Source of the DNA: Candidatus Nanopelagicales bacterium
GTDB taxonomy: Bacteria > Actinomycetota > Actinomycetes > S36-B12
Assembly: GCA_017857705.1 (NCBI GenBank)
Contig: JAFMCP010000001.1
Coordinates: forward strand, 19,773-83,772
DNA length: 64,000 nucleotides
Direction of reading: 5' to 3'
Positions 18,746-64,000 of this stretch are shown piece by piece; the first letter of the stretch is position 1; each line of letters starts with the position of its first letter. Both the position numbers and the translations under genes were made by a program. The notes below the pieces were generated by a model, which did no database searches, was not told the origin of the DNA, and saw nothing but the letters and a program-made list of their open reading frames with translations.

Positions 18746-18854
18746 TCGGCAGGTTTCGGCATCGGCCAGACCGATATCTCTACTCGATTCAATCCGGATT
18801 CACTGGAAAAAAGGGCCTCTGTATAGTTACGCTTTGCCGCGCAAGCGGCACCCA

Positions 18855-18938
18855 GTCCGGGTGGCGGAATAGGTAGACGCGCTAGCTTGAGGTGCTAGTG
18901 CCCGAAAGGGTATGGGGGTTCAAGTCCCCCCTCGGACA
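18855..18938 (+). tRNA. tRNA-Leu (anticodon GAG)
   Basis: The cloverleaf was folded by hand. The acceptor stem is GTCCGGG/CTCGGAC with one G-T pair. The D arm is GCG..CGC. The anticodon stem CTAGC/GCTAG carries the loop TTGAGGT. There is a long variable arm TGCCCGAAAGGGTAT. The T arm is GGGGG-TTCAAGT-CCCCC and the discriminator is A. CCA is not encoded. Confidence 0.93.
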
Positions 18939-19094
18939 CTCCTGGTAGTTGCTTAATGCACACCACTTGCGCGGTTAACCTGCATTTCAAGCCCCGAAGT
19001 TTAGATGTTCATGACCGGTCAGGTTGAAGCTCACGGCCGGAAATCATCTCTAATAGTGACTTAGCGTTAGCGACGTCTACTAGAGGGGGACGCA

Positions 19095-19825: not shown

Positions 19826-20767
19826 TTAATCTCTGGCGGCAAATCTGATTCGGAGGGCTTCACGTCGCTCCTCAAATCGACTGACGTTAACGTCCATATC
19901 AGCCAGCAGTTCCGCCAATTGATCGCGTGCAGCATTTCCTTCTGCGCCGAAATCATTACGCTCGAAGATTTTCCACTTGCGCAAGACGGGCATAATCACT
20001 TCATCGCGGTGTTGCTTTAGGTCGTAAATCCCAGCGACAGCGATTTCCACCGCTTTCCGCTGGAATCCTTCGATACCGTTGCCGGGCATTGCAAAATCCC
20101 TGACGCTGGCCAGAATGGCACTCATGGTTGCATCTGGCTGCAACTCCAGTGCAGAGTCAAGCAGGTTACGATAAAAAATCATGTGCAAATTTTCATCAAG
20201 GGCTATGCGTTGCAGGAGGGCTTCACCAATGGGGTCACCCGTCGCCACACCAGTATTTCGATGTGAAACGCGCGTTGCGAGCTCTTGAAAAGACACATAT
20301 GACAATCCAGCCAAGATACCCGGATGAATTGCTTGGAAACCTTCCTGCATGTGGACCATGCGAGCCCTTTCGAGTTCCACAGGATCTACCGCACGCGTGA
20401 CAACCAAGTAATCGCGAATGGCGGTTCCGTGTCGACCCTCTTCCGCTGTCCAGCGGCCAACCCACTCACCCCATGCTCCATCACGACCGAAGATGGATGC
20501 AATTTCGTGATGGTAACTTGGCAAGTTATCTTCGGTGAGTAGGTTAACAATTAAACTTGTTCGCGCTGCCTCACTGAACCGCCTCTCTTCGGGCGTCCAA
20601 TCTTGCCCGCCGAGATGTGCGAAGTTACGAGCTTCATCCCATGGGATGTAATCATGCGGGAACCACTCTTTGGCGATCGCAATGTGACGATTTAGCTCCC
20701 GTTCAACGATGGGCTCTAATTCATTTAGCAGGTTCAAGGTGGAAACATCGTCGAGCATCGCAGTCAT
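19826..20767 (-). CDS. Acyl-ACP desaturase (soluble di-iron fatty-acid desaturase, DesA-like)
   Basis: 313-aa ORF with di-iron ligand motifs of the EExxH type (WTAEEGRHGTAIRDY; ALDENLHMIFY). Confidence 0.85.
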   Translation of the reverse strand: MTAMLDDVSTLNLLNELEPIVERELNRHIAIAKEWFPHDYIPWDEARNFAHLGGQDWTPEERRFSEAARTSLIVNLLTEDNLPSYHHEIASIFGRDGAWGEWVGRWTAEEGRHGTAIRDYLVVTRAVDPVELERARMVHMQEGFQAIHPGILAGLSYVSFQELATRVSHRNTGVATGDPIGEALLQRIALDENLHMIFYRNLLDSALELQPDATMSAILASVRDFAMPGNGIEGFQRKAVEIAVAGIYDLKQHRDEVIMPVLRKWKIFERNDFGAEGNAARDQLAELLADMDVNVSRFEERREALRIRFAARD

Positions 20768-57590: not shown

Positions 57591-57636
57591 TGCCCTAACC
57601 TACCGGGACTCCGCTCCAACCCGCGGGAGTGACTCA

Positions 57637-57658
57637 CATCCAGAAATCATCCAGAAAT
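57637..57658. repeat. Perfect tandem 11-bp repeat CATCCAGAAAT x2 in the parE / small-ORF divergent spacer
   Basis: Read directly from the sequence: 57637..57647 equals 57648..57658, and the next base (C) also continues the repeat. Confidence 0.9.
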
Positions 57659-57738
57659 CTGTGATCCCCAACTTCGCTATTGGCGAACCTCGGAGCGCCT
57701 ATGCACCTTGGAAACCGATTTCATGTTTAACTTGTGTC

Positions 57739-57954
57739 ATGTCCGCACCCAGCACTCAGACCCTGGTCCCAGCCACACTCGCCACCACGGATCGTTGTGA
57801 CCGTTGTGGCGCTCAGGCGTACATTCTTGCCGAACTCCCCGGAGGATCACAACTGCTCTTCTGCGGTCATCACTGGGGCGCGCACGAGGCGGCCTTGCGA
57901 CCAAAGGTCGTAAATATCGTCGATGAACTCCACCGCCTCAACGAACGCCCGTAG
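57739..57954 (+). CDS. Small zinc-ribbon-like protein (DUF7455-like), 71 aa
   Basis: The conserved-looking part begins at the ATG at 57739: MSAPSTQ...DRCDRCGAQAYILAELPGGSQLLFCGHHWGAHEAAL. The upstream 103 codons of the track ORF run antisense into parE and its leader. Confidence 0.55.
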   Translation: MSAPSTQTLVPATLATTDRCDRCGAQAYILAELPGGSQLLFCGHHWGAHEAALRPKVVNIVDELHRLNERP

Positions 57955-57990
57955 TAGCCACTATCTGTTCGTGGGTGGGTTACAAACTTT

Positions 57991-59421
57991 CTAGTCGAGA
58001 TAATCCCGCAAAACCTGTGATCGGCTTGGGTGCCGCAGTTTTGACATTGTCTTGCTCTCAATTTGTCTGATTCGCTCACGGGTCACCCCGTACACTTTGC
58101 CAATTTCATCAAGAGTCTTAGGCTGCCCATCTGTTAATCCGAACCGCATACGCACCACGCCCGCTTCACGATCGCTGAGCGTATCGAGTACAGATTCCAG
58201 TTGCTCTTGCAGAAGCGTGAATGACACTGCGTCACTAGGGACGATCGCTTCTGAATCCTCGATCAGGTCACCAAATTCGCTGTCGCCTTCCTCGCCGAGC
58301 GGTGTGTGCAGTGAAATCGGTTCCCGGCCATACTTTTGGACCTCGACGACCTTTTCCGGAGTCATATCTAATTCCATTGCCAATTCTTCAGGAGTTGGCT
58401 CACGGCCCAGATCCTGAAGCATTTGACGTTGAACACGGGCTAGTTTATTAATCACTTCAACCATGTGAACGGGGATTCGAATGGTTCGCGCTTGGTCAGC
58501 CATGGCTCTCGTGATCGCCTGACGAATCCACCACGTGGCGTATGTTGAAAACTTGTATCCCTTGGTGTAGTCAAATTTCTCGACTGCGCGGATCAATCCA
58601 AGGTTCCCCTCTTGGATCAAATCAAGGAAAAGCATCCCTCGTCCCGTATATCGCTTCGCGAGTGAGACAACAAGCCTAAGGTTCGCCTCAAGAAGGTGGT
58701 TCTTTGCCCGCCTGCCATCCGTTGCGATCCACTCCATATCTAGGCGCGTCTTTTTATCCATCTTGGCGCCTTCGTTGAGCATTTCTTCAGCGAAGAGCCC
58801 CGCTTCTATTCTCTTGGCCAATTCCACTTCCATCTCTGCATTAAGCAGGGGAACTTTGCCAATTTGCTTTAAGTAGTCTTTGACAGGATCAGCAGTTGCA
58901 CCAGCGACCGTGACAGTTTGAACTGGCTCATCTGTCTCATCAACATGAGAAATCGTGAACGTCGCCGAGTCATCCGACGTTGTTGCTGGTCCATCCTTTT
59001 CGGCTTCCGCTAAGTCTTTCTCCAGATCGATTTCCAAGTCTTTTTCTAATTCGGCCGCAACCTTTAAATCGGGCTCCTCAGACAGATCCAACTCAATGAC
59101 TTCATCGCCAATTTCTACGACGTCAACCAGAGACTCTTTATCCCGCTTGTCCGCCCCTTGTGCAGGCTTAGCAGCACTCTTATTTGGCGTTTGGCTCTTT
59201 TTTGTCACAACTTTTTTTGCTGGGGCACTCTTCTTGACAGGTGCTGCCTTTTTGGCAGCTGCGACCTTTTTGACCGCGACTGCCTTTTTGGCAGGTGCAG
59301 CTTTCTTAATCGGTGCTGCTTTTTTATTTGCCGGAGGTTTCACGGCAACTTTCTTTTTCGCGACCGTGGGTTTAATCCCGGGTTTATTCGTGGATGTTGT
59401 CTTTTTCGCTGCTGCTGCCAT
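57991..59421 (-). CDS. sigA: Principal RNA polymerase sigma factor (SigA/HrdB/RpoD type)
   Basis: Regions 1.2 to 4.2 are present ([16 protein letters not shown], the region 2 motif [22 protein letters not shown], and the region 4 motif [21 protein letters not shown]). The start was trimmed to the ATG at 59421 (MAAAAKKTT). The N-terminal ~95 aa form a Lys/Ala/Pro-rich repeat. Confidence 0.95.
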
Positions 59422-59461
59422 GTGAGAGTGGGTGCCCTTTCGCTGATGACCCATAACAAGT

Positions 59462-59492
59462 GCCCGAGTCAAGCCTGTCGGCTTGTTCGGGC
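59462..59492 (-). terminator. GC-rich hairpin between the secreted-protein gene and sigA (candidate terminator or sigA 5'-leader structure)
   Basis: The minus strand reads GCCCGAACAAGCC-GACA-GGCTTGACTCGGGC, giving 6 + 6 bp separated by a small internal loop. It is followed by CTTGTTAT, only a weak U-tract. Confidence 0.35.
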
Positions 59493-59512
59493 GCTCTATC
59501 TTGACATGCCGG

Positions 59513-60343
59513 TCAGCAAGACCCCTCGCCGGGGCAGCGTAAACGTGCCTTCGCCTGGCCAATGGTGACATGGATTGAACTTCCCTGAATCAGTTCACCC
59601 TCGATGGGCACGGAATCGAGTGAATCAATCCTGAAAGCACCATTCCATCGGGTGGTAAGGCTGATTACTTTGCGCCCAGGGGTTGGGAATGTGTGTGAAA
59701 TATCTAGGTTGGGATAGGACCCACCCGCCTTGCGGCTGAAAAAAGGTGACCCGTCGAAATCCCATGTCCACGATGGTGTGGTTGATATAGCTACGTCAAA
59801 TCCGGCAATGGGGATTTGCCACATGACCACTTTCGAACTCTGACCAGACTCGCAGATCAATGGCAAGTTCGTTATTGCACCATGATTGGGCCAACAGAGC
59901 ACCGCTTGCTCTGGGACATAGCGAGCGAAGGACTCAGACATGGCGCGTTCGAGATCAGCAACGGTAGTGACCTCGTAATTCGTTAAACAGATGCGATCGA
60001 CTTCTTGCCAGTCACCATATACAGGTTTGAACCACACCCGCATGTGGTCGATCAATCCCGGACAGGCCCGAATACCTGCATCACAGTAATTCTCGGGTCC
60101 CGGTACACATGCGACCGTCAGCTTCCAGGCACACCCTCGGCAGCCAATAACTTCATTTCGGGTGCTGCTGTCCACCGTGTCAGGGAGGACCAGTCCTCCA
60201 CTCCCTTCGTAGCGCACCTGCTCTGGATTAGCGAAAACGTCGGGATTCGCCATACTTTGTGGAGCGGAAGAACCTACACACGACACACCTAGTGCGCCAA
60301 TACTCACAGCAAGAACTAAAGCCAAACGATGTTTGAATTTCAC
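59513..60343 (-). CDS. Secreted cysteine-rich protein with a PKD-like C-terminal motif, function unknown
   Basis: 276-aa ORF with a signal peptide ([28 protein letters not shown]) and 14 Cys residues by my hand count. The segment [11 protein letters not shown]...[16 protein letters not shown] resembles the PKD WDFGDG...HxY pattern. Confidence 0.6.
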
Positions 60344-60429: not shown

Positions 60430-61602
60430 TTATTGCGTGGAAGTTGACTCCTCCACCCGATTCAACGCATGGCCCACAAATTGGGCAACCTGTTCTTCTT
60501 CTACCAGAAAACCGTCGTGGCCAAATGGCGAGATTAAGAGGTGCAGTCCGTCTGCACCGGGGCTGGAGTCAACAATTTCTTGCTGAAGTCTCAATGGAAA
60601 AAGACGATCGGAGTCAATGCCGACAACCGTGAGTGGTGCATTAATGCTATTGAGTGCATTGACAACTCCTCCCCGACCCTCGCCAAGGTCGAACAGGGTC
60701 ATGGCTCTCGTTAAAGCTATATATGTGTTGGCATCAAATCTACGAGCAAGTTTGTCAGCATGGTGATTCAGATAGGACTCAACCGCAAACAATCCCCCCT
60801 TAGAAGGCACCGCTGTCCCCTGAGGATTACGTCCAAAACGCAGATCAAGTTCACTTTCGCTCCGATAACTCAGATGGGCAATGCGGCGCGCTAGCCCCAT
60901 CCCTGCAACCGGCCCTACTGCTGAGTCGTAGTAATCCCCATTATTAAAGTGTGGATCCAATTCAATTGCTGAAATTTGGGTCGCATGAATACCTATTTCT
61001 TCCGCGCTTACAGCTGCCGTTGACCCTAATACGAGTCCGCCCCGAACCGCTTCGGGGTAACGCACCATCCACTCCAAAACTCGCATTCCGCCTAGTGATG
61101 GACCAAGCATTAATGCGAAGGACTCAATCTCAAGGAACCTCATGAGCTCGTATTCAACCCGCACCATGTCGGCAATGGTTATTACTGGGAACCGCGAACC
61201 CCATGCTTTGCCATCGGGGGCGGTACTCGAGGGCCCGGTCGTACCCTGGCATCCCCCTAATACGTTGGCGCACACAACAAAATACTTGTCAGTGTCAATC
61301 GGAGCACCTGGACCCACCAGAGAATTCCACCAGCCACCGGTTGCGTGCCCGGCACCCGCCTCGCCGGTTACGTGCGAGTCACCGGTAAGTGCATGTGCAA
61401 CGTAAATAGCGTTACTTGCGTCTTCGTTAAGAGCTCCCCAAGTCTGATAGGCAACGCTAACTTGTTCAAATGTAAAACCGGAGTCGGTGGCGAAAGGACC
61501 GAAGTCGAAAAAAAGCCGTTCACCGTGCGGGAATCCCTCCCGCCAGGCAGCGCTGGCGGGAGGTTTTCCTTGATAACTTAATGCTCCATATTCGGTGTGC
61601 AT
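60430..61602 (-). CDS. metX: Homoserine O-acetyltransferase
   Basis: 390-aa ORF with an alpha/beta hydrolase fold and the MetX signatures (ALTGDSHV, GPSLGGM). It abuts the metY stop with zero spacer. Confidence 0.92.
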   Translation of the reverse strand: MHTEYGALSYQGKPPASAAWREGFPHGERLFFDFGPFATDSGFTFEQVSVAYQTWGALNEDASNAIYVAHALTGDSHVTGEAGAGHATGGWWNSLVGPGAPIDTDKYFVVCANVLGGCQGTTGPSSTAPDGKAWGSRFPVITIADMVRVEYELMRFLEIESFALMLGPSLGGMRVLEWMVRYPEAVRGGLVLGSTAAVSAEEIGIHATQISAIELDPHFNNGDYYDSAVGPVAGMGLARRIAHLSYRSESELDLRFGRNPQGTAVPSKGGLFAVESYLNHHADKLARRFDANTYIALTRAMTLFDLGEGRGGVVNALNSINAPLTVVGIDSDRLFPLRLQQEIVDSSPGADGLHLLISPFGHDGFLVEEEQVAQFVGHALNRVEESTSTQ

Positions 61603-62916
61603 TTAGTTCTTAGCCGCGGCAAATCCGACTTCGAGGTCGGACAGGATGTCGGATAACCCTTCTAGGCCAACCGCCAAACGAACGAGGCCTGGTGTGACTC
61701 CGCCAGCAAGTTGTTCTTCCGGGGTCAACTGCGAATGTGTTGTAGAAGCCGGATGGATGACCAGACTGCGCACATCTCCGATGTTGGCAACGTGACTGTG
61801 CAGCACTAGACCTTCAACAAACTTCTTACCTGCCTCGACTCCCCCTTCAATCTCGAAACTGAGAACACCACCAGTCCCCTTAGGCGCATATTTTTGACCA
61901 TGTGAATACCACGGGCTTGAGGGCAGGCCTGCATAGTTGACCGAAAGAACCTCAGATCGCTTCTCCAACCATTGCGCGACAGCCAATGCGCTCTCTGTGT
62001 GCCGTTGGACCCGCAGTGAGAGCGTTTCGATTCCTTGCGCAATGAGGAAGGCATTAAATGGTGATACAGCTGCACCGATATCACGGAGTAGTTGGACCCG
62101 AGCCTTAAGGATGAATGCCAAGTTGACTCCGAATGCCCCGCCCACGCCAAGGTCGCGCGCGTAAACCAGACCGTGATAGCTGGGGTCGGGTTGATTGTAA
62201 TTAGGGTATCGATCCGGATACAGGGCGTAATCAAAAGTTCCCGCATCAACAATTACACCTGCCACCGCAGTTCCATGACCACCCAAATATTTCGTCGCCG
62301 AGTGAACCACGATGTCGGCGCCGAATTCAATTGGCCTGATGAGGTACGGCGTTGCCACCGTATTGTCAACAATCAGTGGGACTCCAAATTCATGCGCCAC
62401 GGATGCGACGCCCTCGATGTCCAAAACATCATTTCGAGGATTCGACAATGTCTCGCCGTAAAAAGCCTTCGTGTTTGGACGAATTGCCGCTCTCCAGGAA
62501 TCTAAGTCATCGGCATTCTCGACGAAAGAAACTTCGATTCCGAGTTTTGGCAGTGTGTAATGAAACAAGTTGTAGGTTCCGCCGTACAAGCTTGCACTTG
62601 AAACAATGTGGTCCCCAACTTCAGCAATGTTTAAGATTGCCAGCGTTTCCGCCGCTTGACCACTGGCGACGAGTAGCGCACCGACGCCACCTTCAAGGGC
62701 TGCGATGCGATTCTCTACTGCAGCTTGGGTTGGGTTCATTATTCGGGTGTAAATATTCCCGAGTTCCTTAAGCGCAAAAAGGTTTGCTGCATGCTCTGTG
62801 TCTTTAAAAACATATGACGTGGTTTGGTAAATGGGGAGAGCTCTTGCTCCCGTTGCTTCATCTGGGGTTTGTCCAGCGTGAATTTGCTTCGTTTCGAATG
62901 TCCAATTATCGGTCAT
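61603..62916 (-). CDS. metY: O-acetylhomoserine sulfhydrylase (aminocarboxypropyltransferase), PLP-dependent
   Basis: 437-aa ORF with the Cys/Met-metabolism PLP family motif HSATKYLGGHG. A GAAGGAG Shine-Dalgarno sequence lies 6 nt upstream of the ATG at 62916. Confidence 0.92.
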   Translation of the reverse strand: MTDNWTFETKQIHAGQTPDEATGARALPIYQTTSYVFKDTEHAANLFALKELGNIYTRIMNPTQAAVENRIAALEGGVGALLVASGQAAETLAILNIAEVGDHIVSSASLYGGTYNLFHYTLPKLGIEVSFVENADDLDSWRAAIRPNTKAFYGETLSNPRNDVLDIEGVASVAHEFGVPLIVDNTVATPYLIRPIEFGADIVVHSATKYLGGHGTAVAGVIVDAGTFDYALYPDRYPNYNQPDPSYHGLVYARDLGVGGAFGVNLAFILKARVQLLRDIGAAVSPFNAFLIAQGIETLSLRVQRHTESALAVAQWLEKRSEVLSVNYAGLPSSPWYSHGQKYAPKGTGGVLSFEIEGGVEAGKKFVEGLVLHSHVANIGDVRSLVIHPASTTHSQLTPEEQLAGGVTPGLVRLAVGLEGLSDILSDLEVGFAAAKN

Positions 62917-63089
62917 GTCCTACTCCTTCGGGTAATTAGTAAATTAACAAGATGTCGGGCGCCGGGATCTACTTCGAACCTTTGTAAGCGGTATCTGGGT
63001 AGAGCACGAACCCGCTAGCTCAGATGTAGATGCTTGTACAACAACTATGCATGGCAACCTCAATCAGTCTGGGGCCTTGCCTTATGCAA

Positions 63090-63197
63090 GACCCGCGCTT
63101 GCCACAACGAGTGCGGCCAGGTCTCCACCGGGAGCACCCCACCGCGGTTGGAGGGTTGCCGTCTAGCTAGCCGGGGCTTAACGCTGGACTCTTGACC
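63090..63197 (-). promoter_or_regulatory. SAM-IV riboswitch aptamer upstream of metY-metX
   Basis: The minus strand reads GGTCAAGAGTCCAGCGTTAAGCCCCGGCTAGCTAGACGGCAACCCTCCAACCGCGGTGGGGTGCTCCCGGTGGAGACCTGGCCGCACTCGTTGTGGCAAGCGCGGGTC. It contains the invariant SAM-IV core blocks as I remember them (AAGCCCCGGCU, CGGCAACCCUCCAACCGCGGUGGGGUGC, GGCAAGCGCGGGUC), with a compensatory change in the P2-like helix (GUCCAGC/GCUAGAC). Confidence 0.85.
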
Positions 63198-63223
63198 TAG
63201 GCCAAACTATATCGACATGTGGT

Positions 63224-64000
63224 TTACGGCGCTACCTCAAGTCCGCTCAGACACTGATCACGTGTGAGTTCATTGATGCTCTCGAGCCAAAAACTTGGCG
63301 GGAGGGCGTGCTCCAGTGCCGTACGGACCATGATCGCCAACGAGTAACCCGGGAGATCATTTACGGCGCGATTGACACACAGGTTGGCCATTGCACCATT
63401 GCCGTTGAGCCACCAACAAACCGCCGCGCAAGTCGCAATGGACGCACCATGTTTGGCATCCAACTTGGGCAGCAAATCAGTTAATAGACTTGCCACGAGA
63501 CGCCGGTCAAAAACACCATTCGCCATATCCCACAAGATTGAGTCTCGCACCCGAATGTCCCCCATCGCCACTGTGAGCCGAACAATTTCGCCCAGCGCCA
63601 AGGGACCCCCTGCCCGACTCAAACGGTCTTGGACAAAAAGACTTTCCGTGGCCCTCCACGCATTAAGGCTTTCAGGTTTGGGCAGCTGTGGGAACTCGTT
63701 AGCATCGATAAGCAGCGCTGGATTGCTGGCGCACTGTTTCTCGCGATCCAGGCGACTAACCCCCGTATCGGTTAGCGCCACATGTGGTTGGCAATCCCCA
63801 CCACACCCGCTCGAAATTATGTGTTGGCCAACCACAATAAAAGCATCCACGAGCGTGATATTTGCGTGAGCCATTCCTGACCCAACGACCTCTATGACTT
63901 CATGAACGCGCGGGTTCACATTGTCAAGACATATAACAATCACAGCCTCTTCGGCGAAGTAAGTTTGTCCCGGTTCAAGGTAAATCTCCACATCAGACTG
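63224..64000 (-). CDS. Hypothetical protein, possibly DUF4192 family (may continue past right edge)
   Basis: The ORF is open to the window end, and the GTG at 63991 is one possible start. The C-terminal pattern CWWLNGNGAMANLCVNRAVNDLPGYSLAIMVRTALEHALPP resembles the DUF4192 C-terminus as I recall it. Confidence 0.45.
   Translation of the reverse strand, partial: QSDVEIYLEPGQTYFAEEAVIVICLDNVNPRVHEVIEVVGSGMAHANITLVDAFIVVGQHIISSGCGGDCQPHVALTDTGVSRLDREKQCASNPALLIDANEFPQLPKPESLNAWRATESLFVQDRLSRAGGPLALGEIVRLTVAMGDIRVRDSILWDMANGVFDRRLVASLLTDLLPKLDAKHGASIATCAAVCWWLNGNGAMANLCVNRAVNDLPGYSLAIMVRTALEHALPPSFWLESINELTRDQCLSGLEVAP

Follow-up and report, generated by a model that had tools for sequence, protein, structure and literature searches.

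Introduction

SAM riboswitches are the textbook single-input switches of sulfur amino-acid metabolism, and the cysteine leader peptides of actinobacteria are a separate and recently proven mechanism. The SAM-IV riboswitch was reportedly described by Weinberg et al. in 2008. In Salmonella, the mgtA leader is said, after Park et al. in 2010, to combine a Mg2+ riboswitch with the proline-codon upstream open reading frame (uORF) mgtL, feeding Rho-dependent termination.

Small open reading frames (sORFs) rich in Cys codons act as attenuators in mycobacteria, where they are polycysteine and leaderless and where the C-terminal Cys tract pairs with the Shine–Dalgarno sequence (SD) of the downstream gene; metC and metY are not mentioned in that work (Canestrari et al. 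2020, 10.1101/834739). Candidate Cys leader peptides, for which Rho dependence was suggested, were described at cys operons and cbs in Actinobacteria, and the same study found methionine operons to have no regulatory RNA structure in front of them (Seliverstov et al. 2005, PMC1262725). Riboswitch-controlled uORFs are found in Mycobacterium tuberculosis at the pe20 Mbox (PMC12810186) and at the B12 switches of metE and ppe2 (PMC11260477). In Xanthomonas, the SAM-I(Xcc) riboswitch is reported to sense uncharged initiator tRNA as well (PMC7270179).

The metY-metX leader studied here is a new arrangement of known parts, in which a SAM-IV riboswitch is joined to a Cys-codon leader peptide, and no description of this combination was found in the searchable literature. 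We favor, with somewhat better than even confidence, a reading in which a Cys-sensing leader peptide is translated under the control of SAM, and its translation in turn sets metY-metX expression.

Results

A full-length SAM-IV aptamer precedes metY-metX

The window (the whole 64,000-nt stretch of DNA analyzed) has Nanopelagicales-type MAGs as its closest relatives. The features of the leader and the genes behind it are, in the order of transcription:

63206..63211, minus strand: −10 hexamer TATAGT, read in the sequence; ends 8 nt before GGTCA of the aptamer
63090..63197, minus strand: SAM-IV aptamer (RF00634), a full-model covariance match
63072..63094, minus strand: hairpin H1, 9 bp with a 5-nt loop, from fold energy and covariation
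63058..63061, minus strand: uORF SD GAGG, 5 nt before the uORF ATG
63020..63052, minus strand: uORF MHSCCTSIYI (stop), ATG 63052 to TGA 63020, with homologues in 24 other species
63012..63031, minus strand: predicted 5′ strand of helix H2, which takes in the final four codons of the uORF (stop among them) and another 8 nt
62967..62991, minus strand: predicted, tentative 3′ strand of helix H2
62930..62966, minus strand: tract of low G content and poor conservation ahead of the metY SD, from composition and alignment
62923..62929, minus strand: metY SD GAAGGAG, read in the sequence; 6 nt before the ATG
61603..62916, minus strand: metY, bifunctional O-acetylhomoserine/O-acetylserine sulfhydrylase (NF005872, Pfam Cys_Met_Meta_PP)
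60430..61602, minus strand: metX, homoserine O-acetyltransferase, abutting metY (NF047917, NF001209)

On re-reading, the positions given in the original prediction for the −10 box, the hairpin, the uORF with its SD and the metY SD were all correct.

With cmscan, the aptamer was identified at 90.8 bits (gathering score 38, E 4.6e-15), and the match covered positions 1–116 of the 116 in the RF00634 model, that is, its full length. The original call of a SAM-IV riboswitch is borne out by this score, which lies far above the threshold. No other Rfam family was matched in 62850..63300, even at E ≤ 10, and all 16 relatives tested scored 90–117 bits with RF00634. The genomic context is that of the class, since the element lies in the 5′ leader of the methionine metabolism genes metY-metX in an actinobacterium. 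The aptamer tail CGCGG (63097..63093) can base-pair with CCGCG of the P3 loop (CAACCGCGGU, 63150..63141), a pairing that we take to be pseudoknot PK-2 of the SAM-IV structure, and a strain variant (G63114 to A) turns a G.U pair in P5 into A-U. At the level of sequence, the identity of the element as a SAM-IV riboswitch is confirmed. A metagenome scan with the 14-mer GGCAAGCGCGGGTC returned 120 matches, of which 116 were due to chance and four were genuine SAM-IV elements.

A TAnnnT hexamer was present 7–9 nt upstream of GGTCA in 32/32 related loci inspected, which upholds the earlier reading of TATAGT as a −10 box. A strict sigma-70 scan of the leader gave no promoter match, as is to be expected because actinobacterial promoters have a weak −35 element.

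The product of metY matched NF005872 with 800 bits (cutoff 703), and that of metX matched NF047917 with 485 bits (cutoff 475) and NF001209 with 445 (cutoff 331). No start codon of the metY reading frame lies further upstream than the ATG at 62916, which does have an SD of its own, as had been stated. Since NCBIfam names the enzyme a bifunctional OAH/OAS sulfhydrylase, cysteine is a plausible product. The 437 residues of MetY include no Cys and one internal Met. Freshwater Nanopelagicales-type actinobacteria are thought to depend on reduced sulfur, and a MetY devoid of cysteine in such an organism touches on its sulfur economy.

A Cys-codon uORF is conserved behind the aptamer

The leader was compared with 80 metY loci from other species, of which 63 had SAM-IV/metY leaders. 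The distance from aptamer to metY ATG is 173 nt, in agreement with the ~ 170 nt first noted; it had been considered unusual, but leaders of the long type are common in the clade (26 of the 63). Nor is the leader gap the longest noncoding stretch in the window, as had been claimed: on a rough map of long ORFs it ranks fourth, behind a gap of 400 nt (57591..57990), one of 349 nt surrounding a tRNA (18746..19094) and the edge of the window.

Of the 26 long SAM-IV/metY leaders, all from other species, 24 have a homologous uORF of 7–13 codons. In the window, ~ 145 nt separate the conserved −10 box from the uORF, which follows the aptamer and contains just two Cys codons, in tandem (TGT TGT, 63043..63038). 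In all 25 leaders the start is found +35..45 nt past the aptamer tail, with GAGG, GGAGG or AGGG 5–8 nt upstream of it. Over 22 distinct uORFs, Cys accounts for 61 of the 181 internal codons (34%), against 8.6 ± 2.8 in shuffled sets, where the maximum in 5000 was 20, under one third of the observed count; the median Cys content of the window proteome is 0.74%. In many lineages the peptide has Met codons besides Cys, and a conserved CGA codon.

The SD, the start and the in-frame Cys codons are all kept, and the five substitutions that strain variants carry within the 370 nt preceding metY leave H1, the SD and the uORF untouched. The uORF has its start and ribosome-binding site within the leader, and a pathway-related amino acid is enriched among its codons, as in leader peptides. 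The suggestion that it encodes one had been offered as pure inference; it is now the best-supported part of the original prediction, recurring in the long leaders and in mycobacteria, and a leader peptide function for this uORF is supported on comparative grounds.

The UGU-rich stretch might alternatively be an untranslated RNA element, a protein-binding or pairing motif, since a protein or an ACA-rich sequence is a conceivable partner for UGU repeats, and ACA-rich spacers do occur in some relatives (L003–L005). A conserved complementary ACA tract is, however, absent from the window, and the SD and ATG/GTG are conserved at the correct spacing. The TGY triplets also follow the reading frame, with 61 in frame 0, none in +2 and 26 in +1, the last being mostly ATG-T overlaps at the start codon as judged by inspection rather than tallied. 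Both TGT and TGC are used, and the start-to-Cys-run lengths of the uORFs differ by multiples of three; the stop varies in position among leaders, with the frame staying open up to it. We regard an untranslated element as highly improbable.

The uORF occupies the usual site of a riboswitch-controlled start

In short leaders (L037, L047, L051, L059, L078 and others) the order is aptamer tail, hairpin, CCCC, ~ 10 nt, GGAGG and the metY start. This hairpin-SD module serves metY directly, and the uORF of the long leaders therefore occupies the usual site of the riboswitch-controlled start; the two kinds of leader are modularly equivalent. The same pair of layouts was seen among the top mycobacterial matches listed, which include neither M. 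tuberculosis nor Mycobacterium smegmatis. In Mycobacterium basiliense (L202) and at the locus of a multispecies Mycobacterium protein (L210), metC itself uses the SAM-IV-proximal SD. That SD instead leads into a uORF at +39/40 in M. kyorinense, M. noviomagense, M. simulans, M. europaeum and M. parmense. This start position occurs in seven mycobacterial SAM-IV leaders, with several of the uORFs containing Cys and lying upstream of metC.

It could be that the two modules are independent, with the Cys uORF a stand-alone attenuator of metY and SAM-IV reaching metY by another route (long-range pairing or Rho). A riboswitch-less Cellulomonas MAG (L064) indeed has a stand-alone and possibly leaderless sORF, MFTCRMCR (stop), ~ 209 nt upstream of metY, and the anti-SD helix described below has weak support. 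Against this stands the position of the uORF start, fixed both in the 25 leaders and in the seven mycobacterial ones at the place where metY or metC starts in leaders of the direct type; independent modules would not need such spacing. Independence is accordingly considered improbable.

A further reading keeps the gate and drops the sensor: SAM-IV-controlled uORF translation would be needed for metY-metX expression, as protection against Rho or decay, while the Cys codons would reflect a function of the peptide or the history of the lineage. The number of Cys in mycobacterial uORFs at the equivalent position varies from 0 (L201) to 5, two uORFs in the clade have a single Cys (L017 and L023), and M. 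tuberculosis provides documented cases of riboswitch-controlled uORFs that sense no amino acid (PMC12810186, PMC11260477). However, 34% Cys over the distinct uORFs, with the other positions free, is hard to account for without selection on Cys codons. The pathway product is chemically linked to cysteine, and in a related member of the phylum sORFs with Cys codons have been proven to sense Cys (10.1101/834739). A gate lacking any sensor is unlikely, if less so than independent modules, and the Cys-sensing leader peptide is retained as the preferred reading.

Hairpin H1 overlaps the aptamer tail and may gate the uORF ribosome-binding site

Hairpin H1, GGGUCUUGC-AUAAG-GCAAGGCCC, has a predicted energy of −14.8 kcal/mol (z = −4.3), and none of 200 shuffles was as stable. 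In alignment A1, 99.2% of its cells are paired and three pairs show compensatory changes; none of 500 shuffles paired equally well, and positions slid along the alignment pair at 28–62%. The hairpin as originally drawn is thus upheld by covariation. Its two outer G coincide with the final two G of the aptamer tail, and the earlier label ‘switch-like’ is reasonable because of this overlap.

The original prediction had also proposed that CUUGC pairs with either of two GGCAAG copies. Both pairings are available in the window sequence, but the upstream copy is not maintained in relatives, where changes in the 5′ arm of H1 are compensated solely in the 3′ arm. Full pairing with the 5′ arm is possible for the 3′ arm in 26 of 28 sequences and for the upstream copy in 20 of 28, being lost when the arm mutates, and that copy was rejected as the alternative. 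The conserved alternative partner of H1 is more likely the uORF ribosome-binding site.

When the aptamer tail was masked, the predicted accessibility of the uORF SD fell on average from 0.40 to 0.30 (34 leaders; Wilcoxon P = 0.001); in the window, the SD went from 0.53 to 0.28 and the AUG from 0.45 to 0.15. Deletion of the two shared G flipped the minimum-energy fold of the window leader, such that the loop and 3′ arm of H1 paired with the SD and AUG. The helix between the H1 3′ arm and the uORF SD was 88% paired across the alignment, and 24 of 500 shuffles were equally good. The thermodynamic predictions for sequestration of the uORF SD and start in the ligand-bound state are in the expected direction, and covariation of the anti-SD helix is weak. 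SAM-IV had been expected to act on an adjacent ribosome-binding site. Such a site does exist directly 3′ of the aptamer, but it belongs to the uORF and not to metY, and it is probably there that the riboswitch acts. From these folding models we infer that SAM would gate the uORF ribosome-binding site.

The spacer between the uORF and metY

A scan for a hairpin followed by a U-tract found no terminator between 63090 and 62916, in line with the original reading. Since it has no intrinsic terminator, the leader is attenuator-like but not a classical transcription attenuator of the trp type.

The predicted H2 duplex has an energy of −12.9 kcal/mol, against −8.5 ± 1.9 in shuffled spacers (z = −2.2, P = 0.03), and similar arrangements in L001, L002, L003, L006, L007 and L009 gave z = −2.0 to −4.4. 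In the L013–L025 subgroup H2 was not significant; these leaders have a clear three-segment pairing, CCGGAUGG / CCAUCCGG / CCGGAUSCGCG, which is absent from the window. No third or fourth segment competing with H2 was identified in the leader. Taken as a whole, the spacer of the window is no more stably folded than shuffled sequence (z = +0.4 and −0.8), for which reason the 3′ strand of H2 is tentative. A stable conserved structure over the last 100 nt of the leader was rejected on these z values and on the lack of an alignment; H2 alone stands out.

Such a spacer, poorly conserved as it is, might suggest that everything 3′ of the aptamer is nonfunctional filler and the uORF a chance ORF, especially as a 10-codon ORF is not improbable by itself. 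This reading is already contradicted by the observations: 24 species representatives have kept the uORF together with its SD and Cys codons, which turn up again in Mycobacterium, the Cys count of shuffled sets never came to one third of that observed, and all of the strain substitutions fall outside H1, the SD and the uORF. We give it almost no credence.

The G-poor tract at 62930..62966 could not be aligned between the window and relatives with 93%-identical MetY. A block GCGYCCGAC is conserved at 62960..62952. Between −55 and −15 relative to the metY ATG, the window has 11 C and 6 G in 40 nt, and the C/G ratio of the uORF-to-metY spacer is 1.39 over 25 leaders, 2.0–2.3 in one subgroup and 1.08 in the window. 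The tract might serve as a rut-like or standby region.

A mechanism of the kind described by Canestrari and coworkers, in which a stalled ribosome would expose the metY SD, was considered as the coupling and rejected. With ribosome masks at the Cys codons or stop, predicted accessibility of the metY SD stayed flat over 25 leaders (means 0.53, 0.52 and 0.50), and in the window it was ~ 0.46 throughout, unchanged by a ribosome on the uORF. A second, ‘relay’ uORF (ATGCGT...; L001–L007, L019, L020, L022 and L025) was likewise rejected, with 14 observed against 10.8 in shuffled spacers; its ATG has been lost in the window. Coupling would presumably proceed via Rho or via ribosome remodelling of the helix over the uORF stop.

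Discussion

In the preferred reading, the metY-metX leader would be a two-input sensor with its inputs in series. The transcript would start a few nt before the SAM-IV aptamer. Without SAM, H1 would form and the uORF SD and AUG, ~ 10–20 nt downstream, would be free. With SAM, the tail would be held in the aptamer pseudoknot, H1 would be weakened, and its loop and 3′ arm would pair with the uORF SD and AUG. What SAM would switch off is translation of the 10-codon uORF, and not metY directly.

The Cys codons of the uORF would report the charging of Cys-tRNA through ribosome speed. Ribosomes on the uORF would open H2 over the stop codon and occupy the 5′ leader, which would most likely shield the transcript from premature Rho-type termination or decay, and metY-metX, with a strong SD of its own ~ 100 nt downstream, would then be expressed. 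When cysteine is scarce, ribosomes would presumably stall at the Cys codons and prolong the open or protected state. The logic would be OFF at high SAM and ON at low SAM, with cysteine shortage raising expression still higher, this sign of the cysteine effect being one that we infer. It is an evenly balanced proposition that the design is phylum-wide, such that SAM-IV elements of metY/metC-metX act through a Cys-codon leader peptide at the ribosome-binding site they control and integrate SAM and charged tRNA-Cys hierarchically.

If true, cells would compute SAM and cysteine within one RNA leader, and long SAM-IV leaders would gain a concrete mechanism. A ‘translational’ riboswitch could then control a gene that has its own SD > 100 nt away, flux through direct sulfhydrylation would be set by SAM and tRNA-Cys charging, and natural riboswitch-gated amino-acid sensing would extend beyond the Mg2+/proline case of mgtA. 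As Mycobacterium species share the layout, these ideas are testable with mycobacterial genetics, ribosome profiling and tRNA-Cys depletion tools.

The locus resembles described SAM-IV riboswitches in its full-length aptamer, in its place upstream of metY/metC-metX in Actinomycetota and in having a ribosome-binding site a few tens of nt 3′. It differs in that this adjacent site is that of a 10-codon Cys-rich uORF, with metY and its SD lying further on, and in the overlap of H1 with the tail. In common with the mycobacterial sORFs of Canestrari and coworkers, it has a very short Cys-rich ORF before sulfur genes in Actinomycetota, no intrinsic terminator, and stalling as the presumed signal. Whereas those sORFs are leaderless, the uORF described here is leadered, SD-led and placed behind a riboswitch, with its Cys codons near the N terminus and no predicted pairing to the metY SD. 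The candidate peptides of Seliverstov and coworkers (PMC1262725) are similarly short ORFs with runs of Cys codons and without terminator hairpins, but they are located at cys and cbs loci with no riboswitch involved.

SAM-I(Xcc) is likewise reported to be a SAM riboswitch on a met operon with a second, translation-related signal; there, the RNA itself reads that signal by binding tRNA, and no leader peptide does so. At the M. tuberculosis Mbox and B12 switches, as proposed here, a translational platform sequesters the SD of a small uORF and the operon is affected via Rho-dependent termination or translational coupling. The ligands in those cases are Mg2+ and B12, and the uORFs carry no second metabolic input, since they are not enriched in codons for pathway amino acids. 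With mgtA, the proposed arrangement would share a single leader in which a ligand is sensed by RNA and an amino acid by a codon-rich uORF, with Rho as the output. The two differ in phylum, ligand and amino acid, and mgtL lies inside the alternative stem-loops of its riboswitch rather than behind a translational platform, the position of the Cys-codon uORF in the metY-metX leader.

The metY leader contains a bona fide SAM-IV riboswitch

The minus strand of 62700..64000 was re-read, and the positions originally predicted for the -10-like hexamer, the hairpin, the GAGG and GAAGGAG sequences and the short reading frame (uORF) were all correct.

Features of the metY leader in the window
63211..63206, minus: -10 hexamer TATAGT, 8 nt 5' of GGTCAAGAG
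63090..63197, minus: SAM-IV aptamer (RF00634), full-length Rfam match
63094..63072, minus: hairpin H1, GGGUCUUGC-AUAAG-GCAAGGCCC, read in the window, folded and compared
63061..63058, minus: uORF Shine-Dalgarno (SD) sequence GAGG, 5 nt before the ATG at 63052
63052..63020, minus: uORF, read as ATG CAT AGT TGT TGT ACA AGC ATC TAC ATC TGA
63031..63012 with 62991..62967, minus: predicted helix H2 (z = -2.2, p = 0.03)
62929..62923, minus: metY SD GAAGGAG, 6 nt before the metY ATG at 62916

The Rfam covariance model RF00634 was matched over its whole length at 90.8 bits (gathering score 38, E = 4.6e-15), and the element is a bona fide SAM-IV member, as had been called. No other Rfam family was found in 62850..63300, even at E<=10, and a consensus scan of the metY leader for terminator-like sites was likewise empty, in agreement with the original prediction. 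The metY ORF has no possible start upstream of the ATG at 62916. Its product belongs to NCBIfam NF005872, bifunctional O-acetylhomoserine/O-acetylserine sulfhydrylase (800 bits, cutoff 703), and the next gene encodes MetX, homoserine O-acetyltransferase.

The 307-nt spacer had been taken for the longest non-coding stretch, but it was only the fourth-largest gap on a rough long-ORF map of the window. Longer than the metY leader is a 400-nt interval free of long ORFs (57591..57990), which borders a sigma-70 family gene (57991..59571, minus) on the gene's 3' side, and a 349-nt ORF-free stretch contains a tRNA with a long variable arm (18855..18938, plus, 54 bits; anticodon loop CUUGAGGU), which is probably tRNA-Leu(GAG). 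Elsewhere, an Rfam ASdes (TB sRNA) match at 20373..20440 (plus; 52.3 bits, threshold 40) lies antisense to a 313-aa ORF (19826..20767, minus) and may merely reflect conserved desaturase-type coding sequence.

Long leaders are common among relatives

One genome per GTDB species was scanned with the window MetY, giving 80 loci, the closest of which (93% identity) came from 'Candidatus Nanopelagicales' and other freshwater actinobacterial MAGs; the exact window MetY was present on metagenome contigs. Of these, 63 had SAM-IV ahead of metY when searched with the window aptamer (nhmmer), and Rfam confirmed all 16 tested (90-117 bits); the 17 loci without an nhmmer match had no riboswitch of any Rfam family. 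A TAnnnT hexamer stood 7-9 nt 5' of the aptamer in 32 of 32 loci inspected, which supports the proposed -10 hexamer and a transcript starting essentially at the aptamer. The stop codon (63224..63226) of the upstream DUF4192 gene (63224..63991, minus) lies only 12 nt 5' of the hexamer (63206..63211), so any metY -35 element would fall within that gene.

The distance from aptamer end to metY start was bimodal, being short (about 35-85 nt) in 31 loci, intermediate (about 100-140 nt) in six and long (144-280 nt) in 26. The leader is thus as long as first described, but it is no oddity, since a long leader is a common state in the clade. Other leader types were also seen: three loci (L008, L010, L012) carry H1 followed by a GC-rich hairpin (GACGCCGCCUCGGCGUC), with no uORF and a gap of ~80 nt, and in two from acTH1-like genomes (L067, L079) the leader is AT-rich, 170-210 nt long and has no Cys uORF.

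Hairpin H1 is conserved and shares bases with the aptamer tail

Folded alone, H1 gave -14.8 kcal/mol (z = -4.3), and none of 200 shuffles folded as well. In an alignment of 28 leaders its nine pairs were formed in 99.2% of cells and three were changed on both sides (e.g. U-A to C-G or G-C, G-C to A-U); 0 of 500 shuffles matched the observed values, and slid controls were 28-62% paired. The hairpin of the original prediction is thus upheld by covariation. The two G at its outer end (63094, 63093) double as the last two G of the aptamer tail CGCGG, which reads as complementary to CCGCG of the P3 loop, a complementarity that we take to be the PK-2 pseudoknot of SAM-IV. The alternative pairing of CUUGC with upstream GGCAAG was available in 20 of the 28 sequences but did not hold as a conserved alternative, because changes in the 5' arm of H1 were compensated in the 3' arm (26 of 28 fully paired) while the upstream pairing was broken.

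Cysteine codons of the uORF appear to be under selection

The window and 24 of the 26 long leaders have an ATG (one GTG) at 35-45 nt 3' of the tail motif AAGCGCGG; GAGG, GGAGG or AGGG stands 5-8 nt ahead of this start, which opens a Cys-containing frame of 7-13 codons.

Selected uORF peptides by locus
Window: MHSCCTSIYI
L002: MHCCCTRTST
L003: MCCLSCCCQSTST
L004: MCCLPCCC
L006: MKICCCTRTVS
L009: MCCCRMTTR
L013: MCCCPMTRSL
L017: MTRRMCR
L020: MSCCRMPRF
L026: MCCCRMN
L028: (GTG)TCRMCC

Across the 22 distinct uORF sequences, TGT or TGC made up 61 of 181 internal codons, against 8.6 +/- 2.8 (maximum 20 in 5000) in composition-preserving shuffles; the long ORFs of the window have a median of 0.74% Cys. 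By frame, TGY triplets numbered 61 in the ATG frame, 26 in +1 and none in +2; inspection of the sequences, not a separate count, suggests that most of the 26 arise where the start ATG overlaps a following T (ATG-T). Both Cys codons are used, the spacing from start to Cys run differs by multiples of three, and the remaining positions vary freely. Two near-identical strain contigs differed from the window by five substitutions in the 370 nt 5' of metY, none of them in H1, the SD or the uORF and one converting a G.U pair of aptamer stem P5 to A-U. An RNA motif or a chance ORF could be offered as the explanation of the UGU-rich stretch, but the pattern differs from what either predicts; a conserved SD, start and frame with an excess of Cys is that predicted by a translated regulatory leader peptide, as originally suggested. 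Several lines of sequence evidence point to selection on the Cys codons, and we regard the uORF as very probably a selected, functional element.

A conserved CGA-AUG (Arg-Met) comes after the Cys codons in many lineages. The in-frame CGA, immediately 3' of the Cys codons and usually with ATG next, is conserved over deep lineages (L009-L026, L017, L028, L064, L208, L209), and CGA accounts for 35% of Arg codons in uORFs versus 13% in metY; the window uORF and its subgroup are without the motif. This hints at a deliberately slow-decoding patch, perhaps with the Met codon as a further sensor. A Cellulomonas sp. MAG locus with no riboswitch (L064) carries a stand-alone sORF ~209 nt 5' of metY (2790-2820), ATG TTC ACC TGC CGA ATG TGT CGC TGA (MFTCRMCR*), which may be leaderless because TACCCT lies 7 nt upstream of its ATG. 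The C-R(CGA)-M-C motif is common to this sORF and the SAM-IV-linked uORFs of L017 and L028.

The uORF start occupies the place of the riboswitch-controlled start codon

Short leaders with the same H1 (L037, L047, L051, L059, L078, L045, L054, L060, L073) have the order tail, H1, CCCC, ~10 nt, GGAGG and metY start. In long leaders the identical tail-H1-SD module ends at the uORF start instead, so the uORF occupies the place of the riboswitch-controlled start codon. Mycobacterial metC-metX leaders (L170, L171, L201, L203, L207, L208, L209) provide an independent replicate of this arrangement, their uORF lying behind SAM-IV and an H1-like hairpin, with an AGGGA or AGGGGA SD and a start at +39/40. 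In M. basiliense (L202) and at the locus of a multispecies Mycobacterium protein (L210) the uORF is missing, and metC itself uses the same SD.

Mycobacterial uORFs
M. kyorinense: MRAYLGWPIVSRSC
M. noviomagense: MRTHSGWPIMWPPRPRGR
M. simulans: MCTLSPHSIRPAVSFLE
M. europaeum: MCTSSAPCDRLMCRSACRC
M. parmense: MCTHQNHPDRLMRRIPCCRC
Two metagenomic mycobacterial contigs: MRAHLGWPIMCRRR, MRIHLLPLRTPSYTPVCLR

Some of these uORFs share the N-terminal peptide MR(A/T)(H/Y)LGWPI, with 0-1 Cys; in M. europaeum and M. parmense the uORF contains 4-5 Cys together with a DRLM(C/R)R motif.

Predictions from folding thermodynamics agree with this placement. When the tail GCGCGG was masked in folding, mimicking its capture in the SAM-bound pseudoknot, the controlled SD became less accessible, its mean predicted unpaired probability dropping from 0.40 to 0.30 (Wilcoxon p = 0.001 over 34 non-independent leaders); in the window the values went from 0.53 to 0.28 for the SD and from 0.45 to 0.15 for the AUG. 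Deletion of the two shared G flipped the minimum-energy fold of the window, the H1 loop and 3' arm pairing with GG-UUGCC-AUGC of the uORF ribosome-binding site. Across leaders, this anti-SD helix has no more than suggestive comparative support: it was 88% paired, one pair covaried, and 24 of 500 shuffles did equally well.

Coupling of the uORF to metY

All long leaders retain a strong SD for metY itself. Unmasking of this SD, a mechanism shown for mycobacterial polycysteine sORFs (10.1101/834739), was unsupported, as its predicted accessibility (0.53, 0.52, 0.50) stayed flat with a ribosome at the Cys codons or the stop codon. A second uORF relaying ribosomes to metY was absent from the window, and such frames were at chance level (14 observed, 10.8 expected). 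The last 100 nt of the window leader folded no better than shuffles and could not be aligned even to relatives with 93%-identical MetY. H2 is a predicted pairing of the uORF 3' end, stop codon included, with sequence lying 30-60 nt further 3'; it recurs in L001, L002, L003, L006, L007 and L009 (z = -2.0 to -4.4), and no significant H2 was found in the L013-L025 subgroup. Leaders L013, L016 and L018-L025 have three mutually complementary segments, CCGGAUGG just 5' of the uORF SD, CCAUCCGG after the uORF, and CCGGAU(G/C)CGCG, the third of which is complementary to the aptamer tail CGCGGGUC as well. The set, absent from the window, looks like an alternative-pairing system enclosing the whole uORF.

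In the uORF-metY spacer C exceeds G, with a C/G ratio of 1.39 over all leaders, as much as 2.3 in one subgroup, and 1.08 for the window, in which the 40 nt between -55 and -15 relative to the metY ATG hold 11 C and 6 G. In M. tuberculosis, riboswitch leaders act on translation of a uORF and are coupled to Rho-dependent termination (PMC12810186, PMC11260477). Given this analogy and the elimination of other couplings, transcriptional polarity seems the likeliest: an untranslated leader would be terminated or degraded, and a translated or ribosome-occupied one would allow read-through into metY.

MetY (61603..62916, minus) is a sulfur-poor enzyme whose 437 residues include no Cys and a single internal Met; 6 of 56 long ORFs of the window lack Cys. 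Enzymes produced under sulfur shortage typically have such a composition, and a leader peptide usually increases expression when the amino acid it monitors runs low. The NF005872 name implies that homocysteine and cysteine are both made from sulfide. From these points and the CGA-AUG motif we infer that scarce cysteine raises expression, and predict that high SAM would turn metY-metX OFF and low SAM would turn it ON, with a further rise when charged Cys-tRNA runs short. We lean, with modest confidence, towards this full serial SAM-then-Cys model.

Comparison with known systems

Each component is already known singly, including SAM-IV upstream of metY or metC. Dual-input leaders are known, as in mgtA. 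The SAM-I(Xcc) riboswitch is another (PMC7270179). Cys leader peptides occur at actinobacterial cys and cbs loci, and upstream of methionine operons Seliverstov et al. explicitly found nothing (PMC1262725). A Cys-codon uORF behind SAM-IV was undescribed in the full-text literature searched and in the Canestrari, Smith and VapC4 papers; an earlier mention, as in the original SAM-IV paper, is possible. Unlike the polycysteine attenuators of Canestrari (10.1101/834739), the window uORF is not leaderless and is not predicted to pair with the metY SD. It would work like a leader-peptide attenuator but has no terminator of the classical kind. The riboswitch-controlled uORFs of M. tuberculosis (PMC12810186, PMC11260477) are a known case of a riboswitch acting on a uORF.
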